Positions 22,943 through 56,071 of a DNA stretch of 64,000 bases are shown here, piece after piece. Positions within the stretch are counted from its first letter, which is position 1; each line of letters starts with the position of its first letter. Where the stretch lies: positions 11,074-75,073 of the IMG/VR virus record IMGVR_UViG_3300005844_000001; one strand, written 5' to 3'. A program made the position numbers and the translations under genes. The notes below the pieces were generated by a model, which worked only from the letters and a program-made list of their open reading frames with translations, had not been told where the DNA came from and searched no databases. This stretch comes from a virus (lineage: Duplodnaviria > Caudoviricetes).

Positions 22943-22976
22943 AATTTTTATTGGTGAACTTTTGTTGTTTTCGAGT

Positions 22977-31921: not shown

Positions 31922-32670
31922 TCAAGTCTTTCCCACTCGGGCGGCACGATGTCGCTCGTATCTAAATTCGCCCAGCCGGGAGTTATCCAGTGAGCTGGCA
32001 TAATGATTCTCTTCTCCACGTTCTGGTTCAGCCACGCTCCCCACCAACTGAACGTGCTGGCAGAGCAAATATGGTGCTCGCAACCAGACATCTTTTCCAA
32101 GTCGCTTTCTTCGTCCAATCCCTCCGAGAACCGGCAATCTGAACGAGCGCCAAACGTAGTCTTGCACCACTCGATATCGTCAGAGAAGAAAAGAAACTCA
32201 GCGCCAGGAAACTGTTCCATTGCCCGCTCATACCACTCCTTCGTTACCGGAGGGTGCTTGAACATGGCTCCACGCTTGACGGTCAAGTAGTCTCCACGCC
32301 GCACGTGCACTGATACCGTTCCGAGCAACGGAATCCAGCTGAAACTAAAAGCGTTCAGAATCTGGCGCCGGTAGTCCTTGAAATACTTTTCGCTCTGCCA
32401 GTAGCCGTCGAGGATAATATTCTTGCTGCGCCAATACTCGTCGAAAGCAATTAGCGAGTAGTTGTGCCCCTTTTCTTTCAGCTTCACCCAAGTATTCTTC
32501 GGGTCCCACTTGGGGTTGACCAAGTGCTGGAGATAAATCGGATGGTCAGTAGCGTCCCGAGTCGTGCTCGGTACAGTAAAGTCCAGCGCGTGCTTCCAAG
32601 CGTAAGCCATCGCAGTGGCAGCTTGAAAAAGAAAGTTGCCCATGCGCCCGACGTTGTGGAACGTAACCAT
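31918..32670 (-). CDS. Glycosyltransferase family 11 (alpha-1,2-fucosyltransferase-like)
   Basis: GRMGN.LFQ, GYWQSEKYF, HVRRGDY, FSDDIEWC, STFSWWGAWL. Confidence 0.93.
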   Translation of the reverse strand: MVTFHNVGRMGNFLFQAATAMAYAWKHALDFTVPSTTRDATDHPIYLQHLVNPKWDPKNTWVKLKEKGHNYSLIAFDEYWRSKNIILDGYWQSEKYFKDYRRQILNAFSFSWIPLLGTVSVHVRRGDYLTVKRGAMFKHPPVTKEWYERAMEQFPGAEFLFFSDDIEWCKTTFGARSDCRFSEGLDEESDLEKMSGCEHHICSASTFSWWGAWLNQNVEKRIIMPAHWITPGWANLDTSDIVPPEWERLD

Positions 32671-32743
32671 TATCGATTCTCCGTCCAGATTAAGAAGCCG
32701 ACAGTAGCTAAGAACACGACTGCAACTATTGCATCCGCCCAGT

Positions 32744-33442
32744 TCATCTCATTTCCCTTAGTTTCCGTTCGATTTGTTTTGCCAGATTGCCGGTCTTATG
32801 GCACTCCGTCTTGTAGTGGCTGCCAGCGTGAACCCGATGTTTGTAACATAAACGTGGAACAAAGTAAAGCCGGTTTCCGTCCTTAAGCCAGTTGTAATTT
32901 TGGAACAAGCTATCCGCTGTATGCGGGTCGACTCGCCCATCCCAAACTCTGGAATACTCGTCCCGGCGGAAGAAATAATTAGCCGTATTGAGCGCGGTAA
33001 GGAAGTGCGGACGGTCGAGGCAGCGAGCCACGTTGTGGCGGTCAATCGTCATGCCGGCCAAGTGCCGGTAGTCGAAGCACGGCGCGGCATGAGTCGGCAA
33101 GTAAGCAGTCTGCGGGTCCCACGGCATGATATGAAAGAGCGCATCCAGATAGTCGGGGCCCATCACGTTGTCAGAGTCAAATAGTATTACCCACTCGCCC
33201 GGCGCCCGCTCGACCGCTTCCTTCTTGTTCCGGTAGCAGTCGAGGTTCTGCGCGTTGCGCGACAAGAGCACATTCGGATTGCCAGCGAAGTGAGCGAGCA
33301 GCTTTTCCCAGCTGCCATCAGTACTGGCGTCGTCGGAGATAACAATCTCCCGAATACGCGGGTCGTCTTTGACTTGAGCGATAGCTTCGAGGAGAAAGTC
33401 GAAGCGATTGAAAGTGGTTAAAGCTAAAGTAACCTGCCTCAT
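32744..33442 (-). CDS. Glycosyltransferase family 2
   Basis: LTTFNR, IVISDDASTDGS, LFDSDN, HRVH. Confidence 0.9.
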   Translation of the reverse strand: MRQVTLALTTFNRFDFLLEAIAQVKDDPRIREIVISDDASTDGSWEKLLAHFAGNPNVLLSRNAQNLDCYRNKKEAVERAPGEWVILFDSDNVMGPDYLDALFHIMPWDPQTAYLPTHAAPCFDYRHLAGMTIDRHNVARCLDRPHFLTALNTANYFFRRDEYSRVWDGRVDPHTADSLFQNYNWLKDGNRLYFVPRLCYKHRVHAGSHYKTECHKTGNLAKQIERKLREMR

Positions 33443-38833: not shown

Positions 38834-39039
38834 TCTGGTCTTACCAAGTGCCAAGCTTCCATCAGCGCGTTAGACAAGTCCGTCGCTCCTAACGTGGTGG
38901 AGCTCTTTGTTTTTATCCGGACGACAGAAAACGAACTTCCGTGGTCCACCAGCTCATAGCCCCACTTCTTCAAGTGGACTTCGTAGCCTTCGTCAGTGGA
39001 AGGCTCTACCAGCTTCCGCACCTTAGTTTTCTTTTTCAT
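38830..39039 (-). CDS. Hypothetical protein
   Basis: ORF packed in the operon. Confidence 0.5.
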   Translation of the reverse strand: MKKKTKVRKLVEPSTDEGYEVHLKKWGYELVDHGSSFSVVRIKTKSSTTLGATDLSNALMEAWHLVRPE

Positions 39040-39673
39040 TTTTCCACCCTTCTATTATCTTCGGGTCCGGCTTAAGAAACAAAGACTGGAACGCTCGGCC
39101 GCTCAGCTTCCACCCCTCGGCAATCGGCTCGTAGACTTCTACAGTCTCTGGAGGAGGGTGCAAATCAGCCCTAACGAAAATCAAATTGCACGGCGTGCGG
39201 TAAAGTAGCCCGTATCCCTTGTGCGTTCCCAAGCCGACCAGAGCGCCGAACGAAGCGCCGAAGTAGTCGTCTCCAGCCCAGCGGTGATAAGGGTCATAGA
39301 AAATCGTCTTGTTCCCGGAAAGCGTAGGGTTGAATTCAATTACTACGATACACGGAGCCCAAAGCAACGCTCGCCAGAGCCAGTAATCATTCCCATCCAC
39401 ATCGATGGACAATACTCCACACGCCATCGGCACAACTTGATTGACATTGTCTACAGTAATATTCCGAAGCACTACTGCTAATCCTTTAGGCTCCCAGTCA
39501 TACTGGAAGCCGGTCCAGCCGGCTTCCATAAGTCCCCGAATATTGGACAAGTGGTAGCCGTCGCCAGCGCCGAACTCGACCGCTACGCGCGGAACCACAA
39601 AGCCGCTTCGCTCGAGGAGTTTAACAATTTCGGCAATCAGCTTCGTCTCTCCGTATTGCGAATAGTCTTTCAT
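39023..39673 (-). CDS. FkbM-like methyltransferase
   Basis: YSQYGE, VEFGAGDG..SN, LSIDVDGNDYW, VIEFN, KGY.L..NLIFV. Confidence 0.85.
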   Translation of the reverse strand: MKDYSQYGETKLIAEIVKLLERSGFVVPRVAVEFGAGDGYHLSNIRGLMEAGWTGFQYDWEPKGLAVVLRNITVDNVNQVVPMACGVLSIDVDGNDYWLWRALLWAPCIVVIEFNPTLSGNKTIFYDPYHRWAGDDYFGASFGALVGLGTHKGYGLLYRTPCNLIFVRADLHPPPETVEVYEPIAEGWKLSGRAFQSLFLKPDPKIIEGWKNEKEN

Positions 39674-39788
39674 TGTTTTGGGCGAGTTTACCCGAAAGGG
39701 GTAGGCTTTCTTCCATTTGTCGATACTCGCTGAGATTTACTCGCTACCTCTCAGTTCATCCGGGAGCTACCCGGCACGCTCTTATTAT

Positions 39789-41213
39789 CTACACTCCACC
39801 TACTCTAACTTTCTTGCGAGCGAGGCGATTGAACGCCCCGCCGCTAGCGTCGACCTGGTCAGTATAGCGAGAGTGCGGAAAGAAACGCAACTCATCCAAA
39901 TACTCTTTCGTCCACTCCCTATTCAAGCACTTTACGTTGCCGCCGCCGACTTGCGAAGCGAAGGGATACGCGCGGCTGATTTTGTCTCCAGTAGGATGGT
40001 AGGCAAATACGATAAAGCCAGCGAGCATCCGGACGGTATTCTCCCCGGACTCTTTGCCGCCAGAGCCGCCCTCTACTTCCAGCGCGATACGCACGTCCTT
40101 CCCATCCGTCTGCGCGGTTTGTAGTATCATCGCTTCCCGTTGCGTAGCTCCCCACTGCCCGCGCACTACGTCGAGCACCCAATAAACGCTGTGCAGTTCG
40201 TCCACCATCATCTTGACTCCGACGCTCCAGTTGCCACCCTCCTGCGTCCCCGCTTTGTCCCAGCTTCTAATTATCCGCCCGCGCTTGTTCGGCAGCGCGT
40301 CCACCAGTTCAATCTTCGATACTTGAAACATACCGCCGCCCAATGGCACGGGGTCCTGGAGGATTTGAGCTGCGTAGCCATAAGCGCCCAACTCTTGCTT
40401 GAGCTTGTCCAGCACGCCTTGCGGAAGGCGCACCGGGTCCAGCATCCCATCGATATACCTCTCCCCAAGCTCTAACGGCGATACGTTATCAGTCAACTCT
40501 CCCGGCAGGCAGATATGTTTTACCTTGCCGAGCTTTTGCGAAAGCATTTCCCCGCTGGGGTCTGCTTGATGGAGACGTTGCTGGATGAGGATAGTCGGAG
40601 TCACGCGCTTGTCGACTTTGCGCGAGGGGAGCGTATTGGTCATCCAGCGGTTGACGGACTTCAATTCCGCTTCGCTGAAAGACTCTTCGGGGTTGATAGG
40701 GTCGTCGACAATCAGAAAGTGGCCATGGTATCCAGTTACCAGCCCGCCGACGCCAACAGACAAGCGAAACCCCATCTGCGTATTGGTAAACAGCCCCTTG
40801 GTATTCTCGTCCTCGCGCAGCTGGATATTGGGGAAGCAACGCTGGTATCGCTCCGACTGGACGATATCCCGAGTCTTGAGCGAGTCTTTCAGCGCGACTT
40901 GATGCGCGTAGGAGCCACAAATAAACTTGGTGCTCGGCATACGCGCCCAGCACCACGCGGGGAACGCTTGCGAGCAGATGGTTGACTTGGACGAGCCGGG
41001 AGGGACGTTGATTACTACGTCATATTCTTTCGGCCATCCAGCGAATACCAGCTCGGCTACCTCCTGCAACTCGTCGCAGAGATACTTGATGTGCCAGTTA
41101 GCGACGAGCGGCTCGGCTACGATTAAGTCCCAAAACTCTAAGAGGAAACGGTAGAAGCTGCGCTTGCAAAGAGCCGCCAGAACCTTCTCTTCACTTACCT
41201 GAGTGAGCACCAT
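39789..41213 (-). CDS. terL: Terminase large subunit
   Basis: INVPPGSSKST Walker A, LIVDDP, QQRLH, RSWDKA, DQVDA. Confidence 0.95.
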   Translation of the reverse strand: MVLTQVSEEKVLAALCKRSFYRFLLEFWDLIVAEPLVANWHIKYLCDELQEVAELVFAGWPKEYDVVINVPPGSSKSTICSQAFPAWCWARMPSTKFICGSYAHQVALKDSLKTRDIVQSERYQRCFPNIQLREDENTKGLFTNTQMGFRLSVGVGGLVTGYHGHFLIVDDPINPEESFSEAELKSVNRWMTNTLPSRKVDKRVTPTILIQQRLHQADPSGEMLSQKLGKVKHICLPGELTDNVSPLELGERYIDGMLDPVRLPQGVLDKLKQELGAYGYAAQILQDPVPLGGGMFQVSKIELVDALPNKRGRIIRSWDKAGTQEGGNWSVGVKMMVDELHSVYWVLDVVRGQWGATQREAMILQTAQTDGKDVRIALEVEGGSGGKESGENTVRMLAGFIVFAYHPTGDKISRAYPFASQVGGGNVKCLNREWTKEYLDELRFFPHSRYTDQVDASGGAFNRLARKKVRVGGV

Positions 41214-41670
41214 TCTTTTTTCTTATCGCTTCCAAGAGCTTTTCGAGAGTCGGGGTATCCAAGTCCAGCGTCTCGATATCAACCCCAGTAGTTGTTATCT
41301 TCCCCGAGTGCTCCAGCTGAAGTATTTCCAAGCCGAGGATACGGTCCATTTGACGTCTGGCGTTCTGCTTGATTATGTATGGAGCTTTCTTGTCGAGGAT
41401 ATTGCCTTCCCACCAGGCGACAGAGTCTGCACGAAGCTCTTCCTTTGCTCTTTGGATATGGATAAGGAGCCTCTCTCGCGCGCGACTAAGGTAGGTTTCC
41501 GCAGTTGCGTGATTGACGTTGAACTTTTTCTTGACTAATGCCATTATGGTATGCTTCAAGACATGTCCCTGGCGCAAGAGCAGTTCGGTATATTGGATAC
41601 GCTCCTCCATTTGCGCTTCCGTTGGCTTCTGGGGTTTGGGATAATATTTCCCTTTGGGTCCGACTGGCAT
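41191..41670 (-). CDS. terS: Probable terminase small subunit
   Basis: Immediately upstream of terL; helical; ILGLE..LEHSG tail. Confidence 0.7.
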   Translation of the reverse strand: MPVGPKGKYYPKPQKPTEAQMEERIQYTELLLRQGHVLKHTIMALVKKKFNVNHATAETYLSRARERLLIHIQRAKEELRADSVAWWEGNILDKKAPYIIKQNARRQMDRILGLEILQLEHSGKITTTGVDIETLDLDTPTLEKLLEAIRKKNGAHSGK

Positions 41671-41674
41671 AAAT

Positions 41675-42079
41675 TTATTTTCGCAAGTTAGTCGTATCCA
41701 CAAGACTAAGCAAGCTCTTTACAGACTTACAGTTGAAGTCTTCTCCCATCAAGTCTACATATCCCCGCGCATTCAAACTAAAAGCTATTTCTCGAATCGA
41801 ACAAAAACCAACTTTGCGTATCGTTGCTACTACTGGTCGTAATTCGTTTACGTAATCTTCAGTAGCTTTAGCGATTTCTTCCGGAGAAACAATCGGCTCC
41901 CATTCTTTCCAGTCTCCAAAAGTTTTAATATCTATCAGTATCTTTAGAATACTAACGCACGAGCTGCAAAAGTATTGCGGACGATTCCCGTGCTTGATTG
42001 CTACAAATTGAGTCCAGTCATCACTACACATCGTACAGACCCAAGGAGTCTTATTAGTTCTCCCGTATATACTTATCAT
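41675..42079 (-). CDS. Zinc finger plus recombinase-type HTH protein
   Basis: CTMC..CSSC; SIREIAFSLNARGY..F..KSVKSLL. Confidence 0.55.
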   Translation of the reverse strand: MISIYGRTNKTPWVCTMCSDDWTQFVAIKHGNRPQYFCSSCVSILKILIDIKTFGDWKEWEPIVSPEEIAKATEDYVNELRPVVATIRKVGFCSIREIAFSLNARGYVDLMGEDFNCKSVKSLLSLVDTTNLRK

Positions 42080-43131
42080 ACTTTCTTCACCAGGCGGATA
42101 GCAAAGTCGAGCTGCTTGGTAGCATCTGGTTTCAGTATCAATTTGTTTTTGAATACGTGGTAGTTGACGCAATGCTGCCAGCGGCCGAAGCGCTGGATAA
42201 TTCTAACATACCGGGGGTGGCGCTTCTGGAGCGCTTGCGCCATCTTGAGCCGGCCATCGCCTTGATACAGCTCGTCCGTATTGCCTCCTTTCATCGTCAT
42301 CGTCTGTTGCTTGCCGGCGAGGAAAGCATTGAACTGGACCGTGCAAAGTCCGTCGCGAAGGACCCTTAGGGAGAGGTCCGTATCTTCGTTGTATCTACCG
42401 CGCCACCGATAGGGCAAATCGTTCTTGATAAGGATACAGGAGTAGATACGGGTATTCAAGACATAGGGCGGAATAACTTGCTTGTTCTTGGCAAAGAAGT
42501 GGTAGTTCATCCCCGCTAAGCCAACGTTCTGGTAGCGGTCGGCAAAGTCTTCGACCGCGCGGAAGATAGCGCCGTCAGATACCTTTACTTTGGCATTCTT
42601 GTTCCGGCGGAAAAAGTGGCGGATATTGTCGTCGAGAATCCAGTGGCGCTCCGCCCCGGACTTGATGGCGTGCTCCCATATCCAGTTTCTTGCGGGGATT
42701 GACCCCTTGCCGAGATTGGAGAACGGGAGAACCAGTATCTTGTCGCGGTCGATAACCTTCGCGTATTCCTTGCGTTCCTGCGGCTCCACCACGATATAGT
42801 AAGGGACGTGGATTGCTTCCAGGGTCCGGCTGGTTAGACGAGACTTCCAGCGCCCCTTCGATACGATGTAGACGGGGTATCGGGGGACGACTTGAGACTG
42901 GGCTGCGTAGCGCACGCCTTCCACCACGTTCCGTTCCCGCTTCGGGTGCCAAACGTATTGCGTCTTCGGAGTCAATCGTTGCCCGATTAGCTTGGCAAAC
43001 TTCTCCCGGTCCTGCTGGCAGGTAAAGTGGACTTTGAGCGTCTGCCAAGGCATGAGGTTCTCTTGAGCGTATTTGGGCATCCCTTCCCATTCCCGCTCCC
43101 AGTCCAGGGGCATATCGAGCAGCTTAGGCAT
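42076..43131 (-). CDS. TET-associated-type (TAGT/GREB1-like) glycosyltransferase, copy B
   Basis: YPVYIVSKGR, ARNWIWEH, HWILDDNI, WRGRYNEDTDLSL, MKGGNT. Confidence 0.8.
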   Translation of the reverse strand: MPKLLDMPLDWEREWEGMPKYAQENLMPWQTLKVHFTCQQDREKFAKLIGQRLTPKTQYVWHPKRERNVVEGVRYAAQSQVVPRYPVYIVSKGRWKSRLTSRTLEAIHVPYYIVVEPQERKEYAKVIDRDKILVLPFSNLGKGSIPARNWIWEHAIKSGAERHWILDDNIRHFFRRNKNAKVKVSDGAIFRAVEDFADRYQNVGLAGMNYHFFAKNKQVIPPYVLNTRIYSCILIKNDLPYRWRGRYNEDTDLSLRVLRDGLCTVQFNAFLAGKQQTMTMKGGNTDELYQGDGRLKMAQALQKRHPRYVRIIQRFGRWQHCVNYHVFKNKLILKPDATKQLDFAIRLVKKV

Positions 43132-44206
43132 GGCGATTGTTTACGTAGTCAAGTTCCATCCCATAATTATCTCTCTCGCTCGAAATGGAAAGCCCCGATT
43201 TCAGCTTGAGCCGGTTCTTGGCAAAGGGGCGATAGTTGATGGAGTGTTGCCAGCGTCCCCATTTCTTTTTAATCTCCACCAGATTGCCGTGCTGCTTCTG
43301 GAGCGACTTGGCCATCCGCAATCTTCCATCGCCCTGGTAAAGCTCGTCCGTATTGCCGCCGGCCATGGTCATCGTCTGCACTTTGTCTATCAGGAACGTA
43401 TTGAACAAGACCGTGCACAACCCGCCTTTCAATACCCGTAGAGAGAGGTCTGTGTCTTCGTTATACCTTCCCCTCCACCGATAGGGCAAATCGTTGCGGA
43501 TAAGGATACAGGAGTAGATGCGCGTGTTCAAAGTAAACGGATTGATAGACGGGCTCTTTCTTGGGGCAAACATAAAATAATTCATCCCCGCCAGCCCGAC
43601 GTTAGAGTATCTATCGGCGAAGTCTTCAGCGGCTCTGAACGTGCTGCCCGAATTTACTTCCACTTTCAAGTTGTCGTTCAGCCGGTAGAACCCTCGGATA
43701 TTGTCATCGAGAATCCAATGGCGCTCGTCTCCAGATGCTAGCGAATGTTCCCAAATCCAATTGCGAGCGGGGATAGAGCCTTTCCCCAAATTGGAGAACG
43801 GCAGGACCAGAATCTTTTTCCGGTCGATTACCTTTGCATACGCTTTGAGCTCCTGTGGCTCGACCACGATATGATAAGGGACTTTGATTCGCTCCAGAGC
43901 TCTGGCAGTCAAGCGGGATTCCCAACGGCCTTTCGAGACGATGTAAATCGGATATCTCGGGTTGATTTGCAACTGGCTGAAATATCGCTTGTCGACATAT
44001 CGGGTAATCTTCGCTTTGGGGAACCAGATGGACCGCGTGCGGTGCGTTACCGTTTGCCCGACCAGCTGGGCAAATCGCTCTTGGTCTTGAGCGCTAGAGA
44101 AATGGACGATGACTGACTTGAACGGCATCAAGTTGCGTTGCTTGAAATCGGGCATTCCGACCCATTCCCGCTCGCGGTCTTTGGGGATATCCAAGAGAGT
44201 TTTCAT
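43124..44206 (-). CDS. TET-associated-type (TAGT/GREB1-like) glycosyltransferase, copy A
   Basis: Same motifs; full-length paralogue of 42076-43131. Confidence 0.8.
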   Translation of the reverse strand: MKTLLDIPKDREREWVGMPDFKQRNLMPFKSVIVHFSSAQDQERFAQLVGQTVTHRTRSIWFPKAKITRYVDKRYFSQLQINPRYPIYIVSKGRWESRLTARALERIKVPYHIVVEPQELKAYAKVIDRKKILVLPFSNLGKGSIPARNWIWEHSLASGDERHWILDDNIRGFYRLNDNLKVEVNSGSTFRAAEDFADRYSNVGLAGMNYFMFAPRKSPSINPFTLNTRIYSCILIRNDLPYRWRGRYNEDTDLSLRVLKGGLCTVLFNTFLIDKVQTMTMAGGNTDELYQGDGRLRMAKSLQKQHGNLVEIKKKWGRWQHSINYRPFAKNRLKLKSGLSISSERDNYGMELDYVNNRHA

Positions 44207-44268
44207 TAGCTGCCGCTATGTTGACACTCTTTTGCAATAAAAACAGGTCCTAGCGTGCATTCCTGACG
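44204..44268 (-). repeat. Dispersed ~65-bp repeat, copy 2 (inverted)
   Basis: Minus strand CGTCAGGAATGCACGCTAGGACCTGTTTTTATTGCAAAAGAGTGTCAACATAGCGGCAGCTAATG. Confidence 0.8.
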
Positions 44269-44281
44269 ATTCCTGCGTGCT

Positions 44282-44578
44282 CTAGTTCGGGACAAGATGG
44301 TTGTTTTTCTTCCTTCCGCTCAAAATTTGAATAGTGGCGATTACTGCGCGCGGACGTTGCTTGCGAGCTTTGACGATAGCCACTTTGCGCCGATACCCCT
44401 TGACCAGGAAGAGGTCTTCAACCAGAGTCAAGTAAAGCCGGCCGCGAGAACCGCAAGACCGCGTCGGCTCTGGAATCTTCCGATACCCTAAATACTGTCC
44501 GGTCTTCGCGTCAACAAAGTCCTCGACGTAGCCCAAGACTTCTTCGGGGTGGGTTTCGGGGTCCAAGAATTTATTCAT
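44282..44578 (-). CDS. Hypothetical protein
   Basis: ATG ORF overlapping the upstream stop. Confidence 0.55.
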   Translation of the reverse strand: MNKFLDPETHPEEVLGYVEDFVDAKTGQYLGYRKIPEPTRSCGSRGRLYLTLVEDLFLVKGYRRKVAIVKARKQRPRAVIATIQILSGRKKNNHLVPN

Positions 44579-44951
44579 ACTCGTTCCAAACTTTTTTAAT
44601 TTCCCACAAATCTCTTTGCATAAGCGGCCCGAGCTTCTTGATTGGCAGACCGTTCTTTTTCCATTCCCGAAGAAACCTTAGCTCGAACGCATTCCAGCGC
44701 TCGCCCCTTCGGCTTTCCCGATAGACCGTCGGCACATAGTCAATCGGTTTATCGTCTCGACGGTCCGTCTGGAATTCCCAAATCCGTCGATGGACTGAAG
44801 CAAAGCCGCGCTTCGACTTAAACCCTAATTGCCGTTCCGAAGAACTTCCAGCAAAGAGTGGATTCAGTAGCACCTTGTCGGTCTCTTCGTCCGTCCAGTC
44901 TTCTTCGGCTTTTTTATTCTTAATAATACTATCAGGCAACAAACCTTTCAT
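44571..44951 (-). CDS. Myb/HTH-like repeat protein
   Basis: WTDEE..L and RWNAFELRFL repeats; AAGGAG upstream; paralogue of 45758-46369. Confidence 0.55.
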   Translation of the reverse strand: MKGLLPDSIIKNKKAEEDWTDEETDKVLLNPLFAGSSSERQLGFKSKRGFASVHRRIWEFQTDRRDDKPIDYVPTVYRESRRGERWNAFELRFLREWKKNGLPIKKLGPLMQRDLWEIKKVWNEYE

Positions 44952-44959
44952 AACTCCTT

Positions 44960-45511
44960 TTAGCCCTGTGCGTCTATTATCTTTCGGGGCTCGACTTCGG
45001 CTAAGAAAGTCTCTAGTGGAATCCCGACGATAGCTGCCAGCTTCCCTCCGATAATCAAACAGAACAAACCCGAAGGCGGAGGAAATACTGGCATAATCTG
45101 GTTCGCATATTTCCAACTCAAGTAAACTATAGATACGCGCCGGTCCCGGCGGCAAATAAGCATCCACGTCCGGCTCTTCGCTTGCCGGGCGCTCCGTCGA
45201 GCTTGACGCAGCGCCGCCACGAAAGGGTGAGTTTTATTATCCCCTTTAACGTCGAGCAAATCTCCCAAGCAACCGTGCGAGCGCCCGCGCTTGAGCTCGA
45301 TAGTAAAGTAGCGGAGCAGTGGCTCGCCGATAGGGTCCACGGCCGCGATATCTCCGTAGCTGCCATACGTGCGCTGGCCCTTCTTCGCTCGCTGCGTCGC
45401 TCGTCCGCCAGATTGACTGGAGCGCCAGAATACATCGTCACGCTCGTCGCTTGTCCACCACTTGGAAAGCAGCTTGCAAATTTCTCTTTCAAATGCAGAA
45501 CCTTTAGCCAT
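44960..45511 (-). CDS. Holliday junction resolvase (PD-(D/E)XK)
   Basis: KGSAFEREICKLLSKWW, FWRS..SGG, GDI, TIELK. Confidence 0.85.
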   Translation of the reverse strand: MAKGSAFEREICKLLSKWWTSDERDDVFWRSSQSGGRATQRAKKGQRTYGSYGDIAAVDPIGEPLLRYFTIELKRGRSHGCLGDLLDVKGDNKTHPFVAALRQARRSARQAKSRTWMLICRRDRRVSIVYLSWKYANQIMPVFPPPSGLFCLIIGGKLAAIVGIPLETFLAEVEPRKIIDAQG

Positions 45512-45761
45512 TAGACTTCGGCAGTTCGACAAAGCACTTGTCAAATTCCTCGTTCGTTAGAACGATACACGTCCCCTCGCTGACGCATACTATCCAATCC
45601 GTCAGCTTGACTTTCGCCCCACTCCGGTGAGTAAGGTGCTGCCCGCCGCCTAAATCATGGAACGCTCGAAATACCCAAACCGGACGCGGCGAGTCTTTCA
45701 GAAACTGCCAGGCAGTTACGTCTTCGTGCGTCCCGTTGCGCAGCTGGTGAGTGGGTTTCAT
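45504..45761 (-). CDS. Hypothetical protein
   Basis: VTAWQF..DWIV..EEF pattern. Confidence 0.6.
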   Translation of the reverse strand: MKPTHQLRNGTHEDVTAWQFLKDSPRPVWVFRAFHDLGGGQHLTHRSGAKVKLTDWIVCVSEGTCIVLTNEEFDKCFVELPKSNG

Positions 45762-46369
45762 TTCCGGTAAGGAACTTTTACTTTCTCTGGCGGCTTCCCG
45801 TACTCGTCTTCGTATCGCTCGACCAAGTAAAGCGCCAACGTCTTGATTCGCTTGGGTCCCCAGAAGCCGTCCTTAGTTAACCCGAGCGCCCGGCCACCGC
45901 CGCCATACTCAACTTCCTCTTTGAACAAATCGTCATAAGCTTTGTTGGAAATAATCGGAGTCTTGTAGACGTGGTAAATATAACGGTGCGCCATTACCAC
46001 GTCGAGCGTCGGAGCGAAGACGGCGAGCGACTTTGCTTCCGGAATTTGCTTCCAGTCCTCGTTGATTTCCGAGACCGGCCGCTGCAAGAGATTAGCCGTC
46101 GCTTCCAGCGGCACTTTGCGCTGCTTGTGCTCCGCGAGAATCGCGCCTTCTCTGGCGTTGAGCCGCTTCCCCTTCCGACTGGTCCGATGGAACGGCTCGT
46201 AGCGGATAGCTAAGTCGCGTTCGTTGCGCGTCAGCTGCTGGACGCGCAGCTTGATTTCCGCGACGCTCCGCCGCGGCAGAGCGTCAGCGATACTCTTTAG
46301 CTCCGCTCCAGACAAGTAGAGATTCCAGAGCTTGCCAGACTCGCTCTTCTTCCACGGTCCGCCGCTCAT
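45758..46369 (-). CDS. Myb/HTH-like repeats fused to an NAD-ligase subdomain Ia-like motif
   Basis: AHRYIYHVYKTPIISNKAYDDL resembles LigA Ia H..YY..D.P.ISD..YD.L. Confidence 0.6.
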   Translation of the reverse strand: MSGGPWKKSESGKLWNLYLSGAELKSIADALPRRSVAEIKLRVQQLTRNERDLAIRYEPFHRTSRKGKRLNAREGAILAEHKQRKVPLEATANLLQRPVSEINEDWKQIPEAKSLAVFAPTLDVVMAHRYIYHVYKTPIISNKAYDDLFKEEVEYGGGGRALGLTKDGFWGPKRIKTLALYLVERYEDEYGKPPEKVKVPYRK

Positions 46370-46382
46370 AAGCGGCTCCCGG

Positions 46383-46553
46383 TTACTTGATAGCTGGTCC
46401 GAACGACTGCCAGCCCAACAAGCCGAGCAAGATAAAAAGCATGGCGTTGAAGCCGAGCGGCCGATACGTGCCTCCGCCCGAAGGCCAAAAGGCCCACAAG
46501 CCGAAGAGCAACCATACTATCATAATCACCCAGAACAAAGTTCCCTTTGACAT
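46383..46553 (-). CDS. Small two-TM membrane protein
   Basis: LFWVIMIVWLLFGLW..LFILLGLLGW..FGP. Confidence 0.65.
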   Translation of the reverse strand: MSKGTLFWVIMIVWLLFGLWAFWPSGGGTYRPLGFNAMLFILLGLLGWQSFGPAIK

Positions 46554-46756
46554 AGGGGCGGAGAGTAACAAGACGGACTGGAGATAGCAAGTTCATTGTT
46601 CGGTCTTCCGCCAGCCTGGCGGAACCGGGAAAGGGTGCCATTCGGGTTTGCCTTCATACGACTCTTCTAGCTGCCATATCGTCCCGTCGTCGCAGAGCGC
46701 CAAGACAAAGTATTTACCGACGGGGTCAATCGTCATAGAGATTTGAATTACTTTTC

Positions 46757-47113
46757 TTATAGTAACCCCTTGCCAGTAAAAGATTCATAAGTCTTCACTT
46801 TGCGCTCGAGGTCTGCTACTTCAGCTTTGAGCTGCGTATTTTCTTCCTGCAATGTTATCACGTCCACTACCGTGCCATCGACTAGCGGACGGAAGGAAGC
46901 GACGAGCAAGCCGGGTCGTAGCACGTTGCTAGCCGCGCCGGCGCAGAAGTTGACGCAGCGGACTACCCGCTCCGTATTAGCGCGGGCTTCAATCAAGTTG
47001 CGCCCGCGCCCGCCGGCCGTCGAGACGTAAGCCAGCATCCCTTCTGGCCCGCTGGCGATTTCAGTTCCGGACCCTTCGGGCATTACAAACCATGGCTCTT
47101 TCGTATGCGTCAT
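46757..47113 (-). CDS. Hypothetical protein
   Basis: HTKEPW..ANTERVVRCVN pattern common in small phage ORFs. Confidence 0.6.
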   Translation of the reverse strand: MTHTKEPWFVMPEGSGTEIASGPEGMLAYVSTAGGRGRNLIEARANTERVVRCVNFCAGAASNVLRPGLLVASFRPLVDGTVVDVITLQEENTQLKAEVADLERKVKTYESFTGKGLL

Positions 47114-48174
47114 ATGTATCTCCGCTTTCTTTCTGGCAGGCATTCATTTTCAATTTGTTTCCAAACCATCTCCGTCAGCTCCACTACTTTTTGCTCCAGC
47201 CCCTCTTCCTCGATATGAGCGATAACTGCACCACGCGAACCGGTAAACAGAATATCCTTTGCGTCAATCTCCTTGTTTTCGTTCTTTTTCCAGTGCTTCT
47301 CAGCCACCAGAAAATCGACGCACGAACCCACATCGTCAATCCCTAGACCGTAGTAAATCGGTATCTGCACCGCACGGTCTTTGCCCACTTTACCCGTCAC
47401 CCTATTCTTCTTTACCTCGGCCAGGCAACGAGCCCCCACCGTGCGCGGCTTTCCTCTCACCGTTCGCAAAATCTTCCCGACTACGCTCGTCCATATTTCC
47501 AAGTTAGCGTAGAAGCGCAACGCCCGGCCGCCGGCTCTGGTTCGCGTCTCGAACCCGAACTTGAGATTGTCGCGGGTCTGCCCGATAACCAGGAGGATGG
47601 ATTTGGTCCGCCGCAGCCCCGCGAGGACGTGGCGCAAGTTCTCGCTATGGTATTTGGCTTTGCTGTCTCCATACGAACCCTTGGAATCCTCTCCCTCTTC
47701 AGCGGCTTTCTTCTGGATGGCAAACTTCTTAGCCGCCGCCTTAGACGTCAGCGCATCTTGAGAATCGAGGACGTAGATAAACGGCCGGCGAGCTTTAATC
47801 AAGTCAGCCATGCGGTAGTAGAAAGATTCAATCGTGCTGGACTGGACCCACTTCATCCGCTTGGCCATATCCTTCCCAAAGTAGTGCGCGACATCCATCA
47901 AAGCTCCGCCCTCCACGTCGTCGTAAATCAGCTCGTAATTCTTGAAAGCTGGCGAGCGACACGCTTCCGCGAAGCAGGACAAGCTTAGCCACGTCTTGCC
48001 GGAGACGCTATCCCCGACCAGATAGTAGTAGGCTCCTTTGAGATACCCGCAATCCGCACGGTCCGTACAAGCTAAATTGAGGAGGGTGCTCCCCGTCGAG
48101 AGAGCACCCTCCTTGGACAATACCGACTTCTCACGCGGCGCCAGCAATGCTTTCTTGTCCGCCGCAGTATTCAT
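47110..48174 (-). CDS. recA: RecA/UvsX-like recombinase
   Basis: LSTGSTLLNLA, GDSVSGKT, YVLDS, IGQTRD, GGRALRFYA, VKKNRV. Confidence 0.92.
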   Translation of the reverse strand: MNTAADKKALLAPREKSVLSKEGALSTGSTLLNLACTDRADCGYLKGAYYYLVGDSVSGKTWLSLSCFAEACRSPAFKNYELIYDDVEGGALMDVAHYFGKDMAKRMKWVQSSTIESFYYRMADLIKARRPFIYVLDSQDALTSKAAAKKFAIQKKAAEEGEDSKGSYGDSKAKYHSENLRHVLAGLRRTKSILLVIGQTRDNLKFGFETRTRAGGRALRFYANLEIWTSVVGKILRTVRGKPRTVGARCLAEVKKNRVTGKVGKDRAVQIPIYYGLGIDDVGSCVDFLVAEKHWKKNENKEIDAKDILFTGSRGAVIAHIEEEGLEQKVVELTEMVWKQIENECLPERKRRYI

Positions 48175-49421
48175 TACTTCTTCTTTTTCTTCGGCGCGGG
48201 CTCTTCGTCCCAATCGTCTTCGTCGTCTTCTTCTTCCTCATCTTCGTCTTTAGCCGGCTTCTTTTTCTTGGGCGTAAGCTCTTCGTCTTCTTCGTCGTCT
48301 ACTGCTGCCGGTTTCTTTTTCTTAGGAGCCGCTTCTTCTTCTTCATCTTCCTCGTCATCCTCGTTAGCGTCCCAGCCCTTGTCATCTTTTTGGGAAGCAA
48401 AGCGATTTTTCTTTTTAGGTCTGGATTCATCTTCGTCTTCGTCGTCGGTATCTTCTTCCTCTTCGTCCTCGTCCTCGTCGTCCTCTATCGGCTTCTTCTT
48501 TTTCTTGGGAGCTTCGTCTTCTTCGTCGTCGTCTACCGGTTTCTTTTTCTTAGGCGTAGGCTCTTCGTCTTCTTCCCAATCGTCCTCGTCCTCTTCCTCT
48601 TCCTCGTCTTCCGGCTCAGCAGCCTTGCGCTTTTTCTTAGGCAGAGTTTCCGTAGTATCTTCTTCCTCGTCTTCTTCTTCGTCCTCTTCATCTTCAGCCG
48701 TCTGGAGAAGGACTTTCTTCAAGTCGTCGTAGGGTTCTTGAACCAGCAACTTGTCCAGGCAGTGAGTCTCTTCCAGAATCTCGTCATCGTATTGCTCCTT
48801 GCGCGGCTTGAAATCGATGGTCTCTGCTTCGACAAACGAATTGCCGGCAAAAGACTTCTCAGTAAAACCGACCTTCAACGTGAACCCATCCTCCAGGAAA
48901 AAGAACTTCTCCCAGCCATCGTCTTCGTCTGAGTCGCGTATCCGCAAGTCCAGCAACCTTCCGAACAAGTGGTAAGAGATATCCCACAACTGAACTCCCT
49001 TGTCCGGCTCTTTGAGATTGATGACGTTGAAGAGCTGGCGCTGCTTCGGAGACAGGTCCTTCGCTGCCGCTTCTTTGTCTTCGTCGCCGTCGGCCGACTT
49101 GAGCAAGCTCAGCCGGTGCTCACAGACGGGGCAGCGCCCCTTGCTGGACATCCGCGCGCACAAGTAGGAATCTTCATTCGCTCCGATGCCGCGATGGGAG
49201 TAATACGTCCGCTCATAATGGAGGTTGCCGGGTTCCGCCCACGGGTTGCCTTTGCCGACGATATACGGGATAATATCCAGCAACATCACTCCAGCTTTCG
49301 CTTTGAATAGCGTGACCTTATCTGGCAACTTCAGGTAAGGAGCGGAGTAACCCGTCGACTGCTTGTCAGCTCGCTCTCGGGCCGACGTGTATCTGCGTTC
49401 TGATTTATTTGACCTACTCAT
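48174..49421 (-). CDS. Single-stranded DNA-binding protein (gp32-like) with very long charged tail
   Basis: H..C..CPVC zinc site, QRQLFNVI, GVQLWD; D/E/K low-complexity C-terminus; between UvsY-like and RecA-like genes. Confidence 0.8.
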   Translation of the reverse strand: MSRSNKSERRYTSARERADKQSTGYSAPYLKLPDKVTLFKAKAGVMLLDIIPYIVGKGNPWAEPGNLHYERTYYSHRGIGANEDSYLCARMSSKGRCPVCEHRLSLLKSADGDEDKEAAAKDLSPKQRQLFNVINLKEPDKGVQLWDISYHLFGRLLDLRIRDSDEDDGWEKFFFLEDGFTLKVGFTEKSFAGNSFVEAETIDFKPRKEQYDDEILEETHCLDKLLVQEPYDDLKKVLLQTAEDEEDEEEDEEEDTTETLPKKKRKAAEPEDEEEEEDEDDWEEDEEPTPKKKKPVDDDEEDEAPKKKKKPIEDDEDEDEEEEDTDDEDEDESRPKKKNRFASQKDDKGWDANEDDEEDEEEEAAPKKKKPAAVDDEEDEELTPKKKKPAKDEDEEEEDDEDDWDEEPAPKKKKK

Positions 49422-50991: not shown

Positions 50992-52455
50992 TTATCTAAG
51001 TCTTTTTCCTGGCTTAGTATATCCTCTTGCAATTCCTTTTTCAGCAGCCCCATCGTTATCTTTGGGACCAATACCCTCTTCTTTTTGATACCAGTTGCCG
51101 CCCGGCGGAGCTACTGCATATTCGATTTGCGGCGGCACAACGAGGAACGGGTAGTGCTTTGGCAGTCCGACTGATACTACGTGGTCGACAATCTTCATAT
51201 ACTTTTTCAACTCGGTTGTCTTTACGTCGCCGACCAAGCTATCGTGGATTTGCCCTACAATCATACTTTCCATCCCGCGCTTCCGCAAGATTCGATTTAC
51301 TTTAATCAACGTCCACAATAGACAGTGGAACGCCGAGCCCTGAATCGGGTAGTTGCAGACCTGCTTCCGGTTGAATACTCCCGGCACACGGAAGCCAGTT
51401 AGCAAGTCGAAGTAGCCGTTTTCCAAATACTTTTTATACCAGACCCGGCGCCACTCTCCATACTTTTGAAAGCGTCGATTCCAAAAGTCATTCTCCACGT
51501 CCCGGACGTGCTTCTCAAACGTACCTTCTATCGGGTCAATTTCGGGGTCGCACTCGCCGAGCGTTACAATCCCCTTGCGCTTGAGATGCGCGTAAAGCGA
51601 CTCCCCTTCGGGCGTCGTCAACTTCCCGCGCCCAATCCACTCCCAAAGCGAGCGAGCGCAGCTTACGTAGAAGTCTCCGTAGAACTGCGGGAACACAAAC
51701 ATATTCTTGGCTCCGTAGCGAGCTTCTTTACTAACTTCCGCCGGCTTGAGCTTGTAGAGTTGAGCTGCCATATCCCGATGCATATCTTTTCCCGGCGTGG
51801 AAATATACTCGATGAACACGGGGTCTTTGTGGTAAGCAGCAGACAGCGCTACTTCAATCCCTTTGAAGTCATTCTCAACTATCTGATGGCCCTCCGACGC
51901 AATAAACAGCGAGCGGATGATTTTGCTAATCTCTTCATCGCGGACGGGGAAGTTCTGGAAGTTGGGAGAGTCGGAGCTGGAGCGGAACGAGCGAGCGAGA
52001 TGGAGATTGTAGCTCGGGTGGATACGGTCTCCGACAATCTCCCGCTCGATGCCTTTGATAAACGTGCCGAGCGCCTTCTCATACTTGAGGAACTTCGCCA
52101 TCTTTTTCACAAAGGGGTGGTCGACTTTCTGAAGAGCTTCCGCGTCGGTCGACGGCGCTCCGCTCTCCGTCTCCGTGTGGACTTTGAAGCCCATAATTTC
52201 AAAGAGCACGGTCCCCAACTGGCTATGCGAAGTAAAGTTTGCCTTAGCGCCGAATCGCTTGCGCCACATCGCCCACACTTTGTCTTGCTCCATCTCCGTT
52301 TTAAGCGTGCGGATTCTTTCGGCCAGCTTCGCTTTCGTGCGCTCCAGCCGAGCCAAGTCAATCCGAATTCCATTCGCTTCGACGCGAGCGAGCTCAATCA
52401 GCCCGTCGTGGAACAGCTGGTAGCCTTGCTGGCGGATAGCGTGAATCTTTTTCAT
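50992..52455 (-). CDS. polA: DNA polymerase family A, polymerase domain
   Basis: RSSSDSPNFQNFP, motif A NDFKGIE, motif B RYGAK..F..FYG, NYPIQGSA, motif C QIHDS. Confidence 0.95.
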   Translation of the reverse strand: MKKIHAIRQQGYQLFHDGLIELARVEANGIRIDLARLERTKAKLAERIRTLKTEMEQDKVWAMWRKRFGAKANFTSHSQLGTVLFEIMGFKVHTETESGAPSTDAEALQKVDHPFVKKMAKFLKYEKALGTFIKGIEREIVGDRIHPSYNLHLARSFRSSSDSPNFQNFPVRDEEISKIIRSLFIASEGHQIVENDFKGIEVALSAAYHKDPVFIEYISTPGKDMHRDMAAQLYKLKPAEVSKEARYGAKNMFVFPQFYGDFYVSCARSLWEWIGRGKLTTPEGESLYAHLKRKGIVTLGECDPEIDPIEGTFEKHVRDVENDFWNRRFQKYGEWRRVWYKKYLENGYFDLLTGFRVPGVFNRKQVCNYPIQGSAFHCLLWTLIKVNRILRKRGMESMIVGQIHDSLVGDVKTTELKKYMKIVDHVVSVGLPKHYPFLVVPPQIEYAVAPPGGNWYQKEEGIGPKDNDGAAEKGIARGYTKPGKRLR

Positions 52456-52457
52456 TT

Positions 52458-52670
52458 TTACTTCTGTTGATAGAGCGCAATACCTGCATCCTTCCTGCGC
52501 TGGTCGTATTCTTTGCCGATTCCAGCTATCAGCGCATCGTAGCACTCCGACGAACAAACACATGGTTCAGTTGGTTGCCCTTGGCAGCCGCAATCAAATC
52601 CGCTACAACAGTATTTTGGGTCATAATCTACAACAGGTTTTCCGCAGATAAGGCAAGGTTCGTCTTTCAT
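52458..52670 (-). CDS. Small Cys-rich protein between the polymerase halves
   Basis: CLIC..CCSGFDCGC..CVCSSEC; ATGA overlap. Confidence 0.65.
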   Translation of the reverse strand: MKDEPCLICGKPVVDYDPKYCCSGFDCGCQGQPTEPCVCSSECYDALIAGIGKEYDQRRKDAGIALYQQK

Positions 52671-53851
52671 AATCCCATATCTTTCATTTGCACCATCGCC
52701 AGCTCGTATTCCAGCCGCGCGTCCATGCCGTTGTAGAGCAGCAACGCCGGCGGATATATTTCGTCAATCCGATTGTAAGGACTACCCTTATTAGCGCTCG
52801 CTAAGTAGGGCTCCGTTGTCTCGTTGAAAGACGAGACGCCGAGCCGGACTAGCGCCTGGAACTTGAGCGAGCAGATACCCGGGCGGTTATCCAAGCAATG
52901 CGCAGCCAGCATCGTATCCCAGCCCCAGTTTCTAACTCCGTGCCCGAACGTCTTCAACGTCCAGCGCTCTTCCATTTTCAAGTTGCTCGATATCTTCTGG
53001 CTCCGCTTCGACTGGAGCAGCAGCCCCGTAACCAGCGAAGTTTTCTGCGTCCACAAGTAAGCAATCGTCCTCCGTCCGTTAGATAGAGCGCAAGAAATTA
53101 TCTGGCCGTCCGGCCACTCTGGTTTGAGGCAAGTCGTTTCATAGTCGACGGCTATCCAACCGCCCACTTCTTCCATCTCTCTTATCGCGCGGCAAGCCGC
53201 TTCGTCCTCGAGCAAGCATTCAATCCCCTCTTCCCACTTCGGCTGCCGCGGCGGAAGCTCGTCCAGCTCAAACGCGGCTTGCAGATGGTTGAGGAATAAA
53301 CAATCCAGCAAAGCGTCTTTCATCCGTAGCAGGTAAGCCGGATGGTAAGTCGGGCAAATCCAGTGGCGCTCAACCGGCATCCGCCAGCCGGTCCAACGGT
53401 CGAGCGCTCCGATATCTCTCCAGTATCCCTCGAGCACGCTGACCAGCGCCGAGCGCCCGAGCGTCAGGACAACTTGCGGCTCATACTTCCGGATAGCGTT
53501 GAGCAAGTTCGGCCGGCAGTAAGAGATTTGCTTGGCGTCTGGCGTGGCGTTTTTCGGAGGGCGGCAAATCAAAGCGTTAGTCGTCCAAGCGTCTCTATCC
53601 AAGTCCACTCCGATTCGCTTCAACGAAGAGCGAAGGAACAAACCAGACTTACCGACGAAGGGACGCCCTTGCTCGTCTTCTTCCACGCCCGGAGCTTCGC
53701 CGACAACCAAGACTCTCTTTGCGCCCTGGCCATACGGCTTAATCTTCGGACTCTCGCAAGTCTTGTAGAGTCCGCAAGCGCCACACTTCGGGACAAACCC
53801 GAATTCCGGCTTGTCTTTCTGGACTTTAGATGATTCGAAAAACCCGCGCAT
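52667..53851 (-). CDS. Family-4 uracil-DNA glycosylase fused to a 3'-5' exonuclease (N-terminal part of the polymerase)
   Basis: CGACGL, VGEAPG..E..GRPFVG, CRPP, TYHPAYLLR; then VDYET, WDTMLAAH, YNGMDA. Confidence 0.92.
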   Translation of the reverse strand: MRGFFESSKVQKDKPEFGFVPKCGACGLYKTCESPKIKPYGQGAKRVLVVGEAPGVEEDEQGRPFVGKSGLFLRSSLKRIGVDLDRDAWTTNALICRPPKNATPDAKQISYCRPNLLNAIRKYEPQVVLTLGRSALVSVLEGYWRDIGALDRWTGWRMPVERHWICPTYHPAYLLRMKDALLDCLFLNHLQAAFELDELPPRQPKWEEGIECLLEDEAACRAIREMEEVGGWIAVDYETTCLKPEWPDGQIISCALSNGRRTIAYLWTQKTSLVTGLLLQSKRSQKISSNLKMEERWTLKTFGHGVRNWGWDTMLAAHCLDNRPGICSLKFQALVRLGVSSFNETTEPYLASANKGSPYNRIDEIYPPALLLYNGMDARLEYELAMVQMKDMGL

Positions 53852-55249: not shown

Positions 55250-55281
55250 ATGAAGAAAGCGTGCAGAGTATTGCACGCTTT
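55250..55281 (-). terminator. Probable terminator hairpin
   Basis: AAAGCGTGCA / TGCACGCTTT inverted repeat after the 55307 stop. Confidence 0.55.
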
Positions 55282-55306
55282 CTTCCGAACTGGCGAGTCT
55301 TTACTT

Positions 55307-55960: not shown

Positions 55961-56071
55961 ACTGTTTTCCTTCTTTTGTTTTGAAGCCGTTATGGCCTCG
56001 ATTGTTTTTATTATCTCCTTAGAGCGGAAAGATTCCCCATTTATTTTTGGGAATCTTTTCCACTAGCCAAT

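Follow-up and report, generated by a model that had tools for sequence, protein, structure and literature searches.

Two adjacent genes of the minus strand, TAGT-A and TAGT-B (hereafter A and B), were analysed in a 64,000-nucleotide (nt) stretch of phage DNA. This stretch, referred to as the window, comprises bases 11074-75073 of a 75,073-bp IMG/VR virus record (IMGVR_UViG_3300005844_000001; Duplodnaviria, Caudoviricetes). Both genes are predicted to encode full-length, paralogous glycosyltransferases (GTs) of the TAGT family that have a GT-A fold and keep all of the family-invariant residues. We give roughly an even chance to the reading that A and B form a DNA-directed, two-enzyme glycosylation module whose acceptor is independent of any 5-hydroxymethylcytosine (5hmC) or 5-hydroxymethyluracil (5hmU) made by the phage. 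The evidence comprises the intact motifs of both proteins and the purifying selection acting on them, the fusion of this TAGT subfamily to DNA-handling enzymes elsewhere, and the absence of the known acceptor-forming enzyme families from the genome. Given that the record carries 90-bp direct terminal repeats and is rated 100% complete, the entire phage genome was open to examination.

Family and fold of A and B

An initial annotation, made from the letters of the window, had described two full-length paralogues with long identical blocks between positions 42,076 and 44,206. Two open reading frames (ORFs) fill this span exactly (Table 1). When A and B were compared by BLASTP, 228 of 336 residues were identical (68%, E 9e-173), and all three of the blocks (KILVLPFSNLGKGSIPARNWIWEH, NDLPYRWRGRYNEDTDLSLRVL, and GGNTDELYQGDGRL) were the same in both proteins. 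The proposed assignment to the TAGT family, which was reportedly defined by Iyer et al. in 2013, was borne out by profile searches. Pfam TAGT (PF20691, curated cut-off 27.5 bits) matched A with 164.9 bits (residues 85-284) and B with 169 bits (residues 85-283), in each case over positions 1-205 of 205. Both proteins also matched PHROG 842, 'beta-glucosyl-HMC-alpha-glucosyltransferase' (E 2e-47 for A and 6e-50 for B). The isoelectric points are 9.99 (A) and 9.98 (B), compared with a family median of 8.5; the subfamily comprises at least 8000 homologues at E≤0.001.

The AlphaFold2 model of A (mean predicted local distance difference test score [pLDDT] 92; predicted template-modelling score [pTM] 0.90) showed a GT2-like GT-A fold. 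Foldseek matched this model to ColGalT1, GnT-I, heparosan synthase, TarP, and SunS (E ~1e-5), and VIA-align aligned it with BcsA (9fmv; Z 13.7, 210 residues, root-mean-square deviation 4.2), PcManGT (Z 13.4), and TarP (Z 12.0). A search of PDB sequences with the family profile found no solved TAGT structure and returned only chance matches (E≥0.05). In BFVD, the top matches to the model of A were TAGT-domain proteins. The best structural match was A0A6G6XN95 (890 aa, 41% identity), and the T-even-type beta-glucosyl-HMC-alpha-glucosyltransferase of Klebsiella phage PKO111 was also recovered (E 2e-10, TM-scores 0.50/0.63, 17% identity).

Fusions of the TAGT subfamily to DNA-handling enzymes

Domain fusions were surveyed in 120 homologues of 631-2000 aa among the matches listed, and the domain order was checked on 30 of them. 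DNA_pol_A was present in 58 of these 120 proteins; other partners were PolB, RecT, SNF2 helicase, PD-(D/E)XK nuclease, N6_N4 DNA methylase, and ParB_N. Three proteins (P0125, P0128, and P0131) had the order module-TAGT-(exo)-PolA, where the module is the N-terminal adaptor module of A and B described below. Two others (P0147 and P0177) had the order TAGT-UDG-exo-PolA, and were 25-26% identical to the proteins of this phage that carry uracil-DNA glycosylase (UDG)-exonuclease and PolA domains. Single examples were found of PolB-TAGT (P0124), TAGT-RecT (P0174), TAGT-SNF2 helicase (P0206), TAGT-PD-(D/E)XK nuclease (P0229), and TAGT-N6_N4 methylase (P0196), and further fusions joined TAGT to an FkbM methyltransferase or to a GT1 glycosyltransferase. 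In one 100%-complete 54.5-kb record (G023), the polymerase fusion was an uninterrupted ORF of 1210 aa, and both thymidylate synthase (TS) and TET were absent. Because relatives are fused to polymerases, RecT, helicase, nuclease, DNA methylase, and ParB, the initial view that DNA is the arena of these enzymes is now much better supported.

Two further features of the family were noted in these surveys. Genes for NAD-dependent sugar epimerases/dehydratases lay beside TAGT in about 10 of 127 loci (e.g., L063:6060-6893 and L007:2142-2987) and were not seen in the window; such neighbours suggest tailored sugar donors in some phages. TAGT-DUF5872 fusions (P0207, P0212, P0215, and P0218) are similar in size to A0A6G6XN95, and one source names them as virophage cysteine protease (Dishui Lake virophage 8), so that the family reaches virophages.

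An N-terminal adaptor module, linked to ParB-like proteins in relatives

The N-terminal module with the pattern EWxGMP..VHF..GQ..W.P, which had been noted in both proteins, was recovered by profile. When a profile was built from the separate adaptor (ParB-plus-module) proteins of relatives and run against the six frames of the genome, it matched only the modules of A and B (Table 1). The module is absent from T-even and TET-linked enzymes; the PHROG profile begins at residue 84, and the alignment with the enzyme of Persicivirga phage P12024L begins at residue 87. Within the full model of A, the module was placed in cis against the catalytic domain with pLDDT values of 92-97 and little secondary structure, and when modelled alone with AlphaFold2 it reached pLDDT 80 and pTM 0.48. 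The module alone matched no solved chain at Z≥2 among 48,161, and in ESM Atlas it matched just unnamed viral mini-proteins with scores of 0.83-0.84, under the trusted level.

The arrangement of the module was examined in 127 TAGT loci, drawn from 75 viral loci, 66 genome-contig loci, and the window. It was separate from TAGT in 80 of the 127, either as the C-terminal part of an upstream protein of ~190-230 aa (52 loci) or as a mini-protein of ~80-125 aa (28 loci). The module was fused to the TAGT enzyme, as in this phage, in 21 loci, and only a short TAGT ORF was seen in the remaining 26. The larger upstream ORFs directly adjoined the TAGT gene in 44 of 53 cases, with a spacing of -43 to +10 nt. 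These larger proteins are ParB-like in their N-terminal part. Forty-three non-redundant members of this group were scanned for Pfam ParB_N, 13 near-identical ones having been dropped; 20 of the 43 matched at E≤1e-3, 8 matched more weakly, and 15 did not match. One such protein (L053) carries ParB_N at residues 2-91 and, at residues 129-190, a module 47% identical to that of A. Triple fusions of the order ParB_N-module-TAGT were also found (P0039, P0068, and P0103), and P0145 adds an FkbM domain. Judged from gene layout and fusion, the ParB-carrying adaptor of relatives is probably a partner protein of TAGT, and the N-terminal module may be a docking arm through which a targeting partner is tethered to the enzyme.

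A module-only profile matched 3393 clusters at 50% identity (E≤1e-3), and most of the best 150 were mini-proteins of 80-140 aa. Among 28 longer module proteins that were scanned, nine contained TAGT, one contained PF04488 (P0258, a different GT-A family), one LAGLIDADG, one a zinc ribbon, and one a weak ParB_N match, while 15 yielded nothing. Several proteins (P0241-P0246) have two copies of the module, and in P0248 (979 aa) five stretches match, alongside two TAGT domains. When the module stands alone as a protein, the sequence typically ends in ...RYVDES. Genes for a ParB-like-module protein, a TAGT, and a large-terminase-type protein (Terminase_6N) also lie close together in two cultured enterobacteria, in the Pantoea stewartii ATCC 8199 chromosome (L120) and in Erwinia sp. 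OLFS4 (L119), probably within prophages; elements that seem to be temperate thus carry the module as well.

Absence of known acceptor-forming enzymes

No TET/JBP dioxygenase, hydroxymethylase, or C5-methyltransferase had been visible in the window, and the same was found for the complete 75-kb genome. PF00303, PF12851, and PF00145 gave no match at E≤10 in its six frames, and Pfam scans of the whole-genome ORFs revealed no thymidylate-synthase-type enzyme, no TET/JBP or other 2-oxoglutarate dioxygenase, and no C5-methyltransferase. The alpha-GT and beta-GT families were not among the general Pfam matches of the ORFs scanned, no six-frame search having been aimed at them. An HxD/E motif was not present in the larger unassigned real ORFs that were inspected. 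As a positive control, the PF12851 search recovered the dioxygenase of phage P12024L, which carries a TET-TAGT-methyltransferase operon, the classical arrangement.

Relatives were examined in the same manner, using the 38 IMG/VR records of at least 37 kb that carry this TAGT subfamily. PF00303 or PF12851 was found in 0 of 38 records, and in 0 of 14 among those that were at least 90% complete. The cultured carrier Vibrio phage 1.076.O likewise gave neither a TS nor a TET match. When the 1143 ORFs of 13 complete genomes (12 relatives and this phage) were clustered, TAGT was the sole widely shared family (12 of 13 genomes by clustering, 13 of 13 by tblastn), and every other family was present in at most 5 of 13. 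Thus, among these 13 genomes, there is no hidden partner gene that travels with TAGT. Two sources of the acceptor had been envisaged initially. The first, synthesis by an enzyme encoded elsewhere in the genome, is not supported by these searches, which cover the known acceptor-forming families; the second, a novel acceptor, would survive them.

Candidate acceptors

The reading that we prefer, DNA glycosylation that does not depend on phage-made 5hmC or 5hmU, can be taken further, although only tentatively. The adaptor and the TAGT enzyme together might be an autonomous module that puts sugar directly on unmodified DNA, namely a canonical base, the backbone, a DNA end, or a repair intermediate, with no hydroxymethyl or hydroxyl precursor. 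Delivery would be achieved by a fused or ParB-linked adaptor or by replicase fusion, and in this phage the second paralogue would lengthen the mark or add variety to it.

Several points weigh against the preferred reading. To our knowledge, the sugar modifications described for phage DNA all build on a hydroxymethylated or hydroxylated pyrimidine supplied by a dedicated enzyme, and we know of no DNA modification in which the sugar sits on DNA lacking a prior hydroxymethyl or hydroxyl base. The ParB-like part was found nowhere in the six frames of this genome, so the ParB argument comes from relatives only. Three of the four cultured carriers checked (henriette 12B8, Aeh1, and Kuja) have one TS homologue, which in henriette 12B8 adjoins DHFR and thymidine kinase. 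Fusion to a polymerase indicates co-localisation with the replisome rather than the nature of the acceptor, which could be a protein of the replisome or of packaging. Finally, PF12851 is present in only 83-95% of the contigs found with custom dioxygenase profiles (PMC13229309), and GREB1, the animal relative of the family, glycosylates a protein (PMC7968844).

There are two alternatives for the acceptor. The stronger of these, which we regard as possible but doubtful, is that the acceptor is not DNA at all. A and B would then modify a replisome, recombination, packaging, virion, or host protein, or a glycan, and the fusions would mark the location of the target. GREB1, which has the same glycosyltransferase domain, provides a precedent in its O-GlcNAcylation of a protein (PMC7968844), whereas the characterised microbial and kinetoplastid members named in the cited papers all act on DNA. 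A non-DNA target would be consistent with the position of the Vibrio phage 1.076.O homologue between portal and head-morphogenesis genes, and with the large glycosyltransferase/methyltransferase cluster already present in the head module of this phage; however, the carriers are unrelated phage types that share no other protein family. The absence of known acceptor-forming enzymes also fits a non-DNA acceptor. Moreover, because the adaptor module occurs on a different GT-A family in P0258, it could be a protein-docking element. Nevertheless, the fusion partners of TAGT are overwhelmingly varied DNA enzymes, which have DNA in common rather than any one protein, and this argues for the DNA-directed reading.

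Less probable is a classical route in which 5hmC, 5hmU, or 5-hydroxycytosine (5hoC) would come from an enzyme too divergent for the profiles, with A and B adding the first and the second sugar in the manner of T2/T6 or the TET-linked clusters. Such a route would match what every characterised TAGT-type enzyme does in the cited papers. Since PF12851 does not catch all phage dioxygenases (PMC13229309), a divergent one may have escaped the search, and several ORFs of the genome have no assigned family. In addition, the metagenomic proteins P0210 and P0211 join TAGT to radical-SAM/SPASM, a possible lead to unconventional acceptor-forming or sugar-tailoring chemistry in the family. Yet the classical route is unlikely, because the known acceptor-forming families are absent here, TS and TET are absent from the 38 relatives, and no second family accompanies TAGT in the 13 complete genomes; the lack of an HxD/E motif in the larger unassigned ORFs points in the same direction.

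Both copies are predicted to be intact and retained

The start of B overlaps the end of A by 8 nt (ATGCCTAA), which suggests translational coupling. Aligning 100 family members revealed 20 invariant columns, and all 20 residues are present in both A and B (A numbering: R94, T100, E116, Y123, L135, R148, W164, D167, D168, N169, E194, N202, N227, L235, D251, K275, T278, G283, G284, and N285). Of the 136 columns conserved at ≥85% in the other 95 sequences, A keeps 133 and B keeps 130, with none of the departures in the acidic motifs. The C-terminal tail of B is without the family NYGMxL motif.

The ratio of nonsynonymous to synonymous substitution rates (dN/dS) between A and B was 0.12, with dS saturated at ~2.5. 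A sister phage (L004/G001, 74 kb) has an orthologue of each copy, 94% identical for A and 86% identical for B, with a dN/dS of 0.09. A quick IQ-TREE search of 100 sequences placed the clades of A and B as sisters (SH-aLRT 95). G022 (78 kb), from the same phage group but more distant, carries two full-length copies next to each other, with a stop codon between them. The selection, the orthologues, the tree, and G022 therefore indicate an old duplication that has been retained, not a recent accident. By these sequence criteria, the pair is neither a chance nor a decaying duplicate, and both copies appear to be under equally strong purifying selection.

Paired TAGTs also occur outside this phage. 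Two TAGT domains form single polypeptides in P0121, P0122, and P0123 (among the 30 proteins checked for domain order), and two catalytic copies lie side by side in 8 of 218 loci. Of the 13 complete genomes, 5 have two copies, including three from the group of this phage itself, and Vibrio phage Kuja has an annotated tandem TAGT pair. Of the original suggestion that the paralogues make sequential or base-specific sugar additions, joint action of two TAGTs gains support from the TAGT-TAGT polypeptides; a preference for sequential order over different sites does not.

The least probable alternative, a single sugar-adding step carried out by one active enzyme with a helper (A and B forming an obligate heterodimer, or one copy having turned into a regulator or scaffold without catalytic activity), would suit the tightly coupled genes, the dimeric state of many GT-A enzymes, and the loss of NYGMxL from the tail of B, but both copies have every invariant residue, including DDN and EDTD, and purifying selection is equally strong on each.

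Under the preferred reading of a DNA-directed two-enzyme module, A and B would be catalytically competent, inverting-type GT-A TAGT enzymes, each with a fused adaptor module, and would be produced together from one translationally coupled unit. Their most likely substrate would be phage DNA that is being, or has just been, replicated and is still to be packaged, and the donors would be host sugar nucleotides. The two enzymes might act in series, with a first sugar being added and then extended as the T2/T6 enzyme extends glucosyl-hmC, or might serve two different sites.

If direct glycosylation of unmodified DNA is true, DNA modification would gain a new class, one carried by thousands of uncultured phages of many bacterial phyla. 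The subfamily is very large, and members of it are physically joined to replicases, recombinases, and ParB-like proteins; yet no precursor enzyme accompanies it in any of the complete genomes examined. This leaves two outcomes: an entire class of DNA glycosylation chemistry that is still undiscovered, or a major role outside DNA, at the replisome, for a family of DNA-type glycosyltransferases. Either one matters for phage evasion of restriction, glycosylase, and CRISPR defences, and for DNA-labelling enzymes; the tandem pair and the TAGT-TAGT fusions offer a natural two-step case.

Genomic context and distribution

Table 1. Positions of A, B, their domains, and the adjacent genes in the window
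Feature	Position	Strand	Description or basis
TAGT-A	43124..44206	minus	360 aa; adaptor module, GT-A catalytic domain, and basic C-terminal region ending NYGMxL
TAGT-B	42076..43131	minus	351 aa; architecture as A, C-terminal tail divergent
A adaptor (N-) module, residues 12-78	43973..44173	minus	profile match, E 3e-21
B adaptor (N-) module, residues 13-78	42898..43095	minus	profile match, E 1e-21
A TAGT catalytic domain, residues 85-284	43355..43954	minus	Pfam positions 1-205 of 205; invariant R94, D167-D168-N169, D251, K275, G283-G284-N285
A stop / B start overlap, 8 nt	43124..43131	minus	sequence, ATGCCTAA
165-aa Cys-rich ORF between B and the terminase genes	41675..42172	minus	no Pfam, PHROG, or NCBIfam match
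Putative small terminase, 170 aa	41191..41703	minus	position only; overlaps terL start
Large terminase, terL	39789..41213	minus	Pfam Terminase_6C

The assigned genes of the minus strand begin, at the replication end, with a DnaB-like helicase, a processivity factor, UDG-exonuclease, and PolA, followed by UvsY-, gp32-, and UvsX/RecA-like genes. Small ORFs, a PDDEXK_15 nuclease, two further small ORFs, A, B, the 165-aa Cys-rich ORF, and the 170-aa ORF come next, and then large terminase, portal, and MuF. By this order, the A/B pair lies at the seam of the replication/recombination and packaging genes. The initial annotation had placed the pair two genes upstream of terS; terS is only a putative call, since the 170-aa ORF has no Pfam or PHROG match and is assigned by position only, from its overlap with the start of terL. 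Large-terminase genes were the commonest other neighbours of TAGT (28 of 74 viral loci in a first clustering, with Pfam confirming representatives). Neither A nor B nor any of 10 neighbouring or unassigned ORFs has an NCBIfam model, and a promoter/terminator scan of 39000-47500 gave nothing above shuffles.

Other ORFs near the pair were also inspected. Just downstream of terL, a 216-aa ORF (39023-39673) contains VEFGAGDG, which resembles an S-adenosylmethionine-binding motif, and IDVDGNDYW, which by eye recalls FkbM methyltransferases. This ORF had no Pfam, PHROG, or NCBIfam match and no BLAST link to the TAGT fusions, although relatives fuse FkbM to TAGT. When seven small neighbouring ORFs were compared by BLAST with the 120 long fusion proteins, a single weak FkbM match was the only result.

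Elsewhere in the genome, the head module holds a dense cluster (26325-33442) between MuF and the scaffold/capsid genes. This cluster encodes two GT2 enzymes, a MazG-like pyrophosphatase, DUF3310, GT25, and GT11 (fucosyltransferase-like), as well as FkbM and Methyltransf_24 methyltransferases; a sialyltransferase-like/MptE-like gene (21504-22151) lies just beyond the capsid gene. The cluster looks like one for virion- or glycan-directed glycosylation, distinct from the TAGT pair. The family-A polymerase is divided between two genes (50992-52563 and 52667-53851), one for the UDG-like and 3'-5' exonuclease parts and one for the polymerase. The gp32-like single-stranded-DNA-binding protein (48174-49421) has a C-terminal tail of ~190 aa that consists nearly entirely of D/E runs broken by PKKKK repeats. 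A Response_reg receiver-domain gene (11157-11549; Pfam E 2e-16) is located among tail/host-interaction genes. Plus-strand ORFs at 22908-23984 and 55250-55984 were rejected as antisense artefacts, the real genes being 22977-24032 (capsid) and 55307-55960.

This phage, labelled a soil phage, was also sought in metagenomes. Window positions 39000-48000 were present in 23 rhizosphere-metagenome runs from 20 studies, with half or more of the sampled words found in 13 of the 23. The runs were examined as Logan contigs, which cannot reveal base modification, and no RNA run was among the listed holders of this stretch. The phage or its close kin thus appears to recur in rhizosphere samples.

Comparison with known systems

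In the passages of the literature that were examined, supplements aside, we found no account of the adaptor module or its fusion to ParB, of the fusions to replicases, or of a whole-genome absence of precursor enzymes. Likewise, nothing was found on phage virion DNA glycosylated at deoxyadenosine, and nothing on the DNA chemistry of vB_VchM_Kuja.

One member of PF20691 is the T2/T6 enzyme, which attaches a second glucose to alpha-glucosyl-hmC (PMC13216743; PMC13390438). A and B resemble this beta-glucosyl-HMC-alpha-glucosyltransferase in the Pfam TAGT and PHROG 842 matches and in the GT-A fold, and the enzyme provides a precedent for a second sugar (PMC13216743). In contrast, A has only 17% identity to the T-even-type member of Klebsiella phage PKO111 in the structural alignment, and the T2/T6 enzyme was not found by tblastn at E≤1e-5. 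The T2/T6 enzyme is also without the adaptor module, and its partners, dCMP hydroxymethylase and alpha-GT, did not turn up in the scans of this genome. 'Solitary' TAGTs with neither alpha- nor beta-GT have been reported in 288 of 753 phage genomes (PMC13216743; PMC13390438).

Phage GT-A enzymes encoded beside C5-methyltransferase and 5mYOX genes decorate 5hmC with a variety of glycans (Pyle et al., bioRxiv 10.1101/2023.12.21.572611). These TET/5mYOX-associated enzymes belong to the same family as A and B; the P12024L gene is 28% identical over residues 87-335, and the clusters show linkage to ParB and terminase genes as well. They differ in adjoining a TET/JBP dioxygenase that makes 5hmC or 5hmU, which is found neither here nor in the 38 relatives, and the P12024L enzyme (252 aa) is without the adaptor module. 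Compared with the motif R..DDD..EDY/F quoted for them by Pyle et al., the present subfamily has invariant R94, R148, D167-D168, and D251, with E250 in ≥90% of the 100 sequences, but reads DDN (N169 being invariant) and EDT (with T252). Of ~25,000 GT contigs, about 65% had neither 5mYOX nor ThyS as a neighbour, and their link to DNA was considered less obvious (bioRxiv 10.1101/2023.12.21.572611).

The kinetoplastid base-J glucosyltransferase JGT is, by description, a GT-A DNA glucosyltransferase and the reported closest cellular structural relative of the phage GT-A enzymes (Pyle et al.), but requires 5hmU from JBP1/2. GREB1 has a related glycosyltransferase domain, and the homologue P0230 bears the UniRef name 'GREB1-related protein'; however, GREB1 is an animal, cytoplasmic protein O-GlcNAc transferase with no DNA context (PMC7968844). 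An arabinosyl-5hoC system was ruled out for A and B, since such systems use GT-B enzymes and a TS homologue (PMC13326640).

The adaptor can be compared with the ParB-like activators of phage DNA dioxygenases, which have been established experimentally (PMC13229309). A subclass of the phage T-dioxygenases requires a ParB-like activator, and GTs, ParBs, and terminases are the commonest neighbours of the T-dioxygenases (PMC13229309). In the 5mYOX176/ParB176 pair, a DNA-modifying enzyme is coupled to a small ParB-like partner that has no DNA-binding domain and is encoded near terminase genes (PMC13229309); comparably, the TAGT subfamily has a module-bearing ParB-like partner in 52 of the 127 loci. 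Here, by contrast, the catalytic partner is a glycosyltransferase, and this phage has no ParB part, each enzyme carrying the adaptor as a fused module. A role for ParB in directing modification machinery during packaging was proposed by Aravind, as cited by Burke et al. (PMC8256090). Orphan TAGTs are already on record, and the adaptor-ParB link, the replicase fusions, the TAGT-TAGT polypeptides, and the comparison of 13 genomes are new here.

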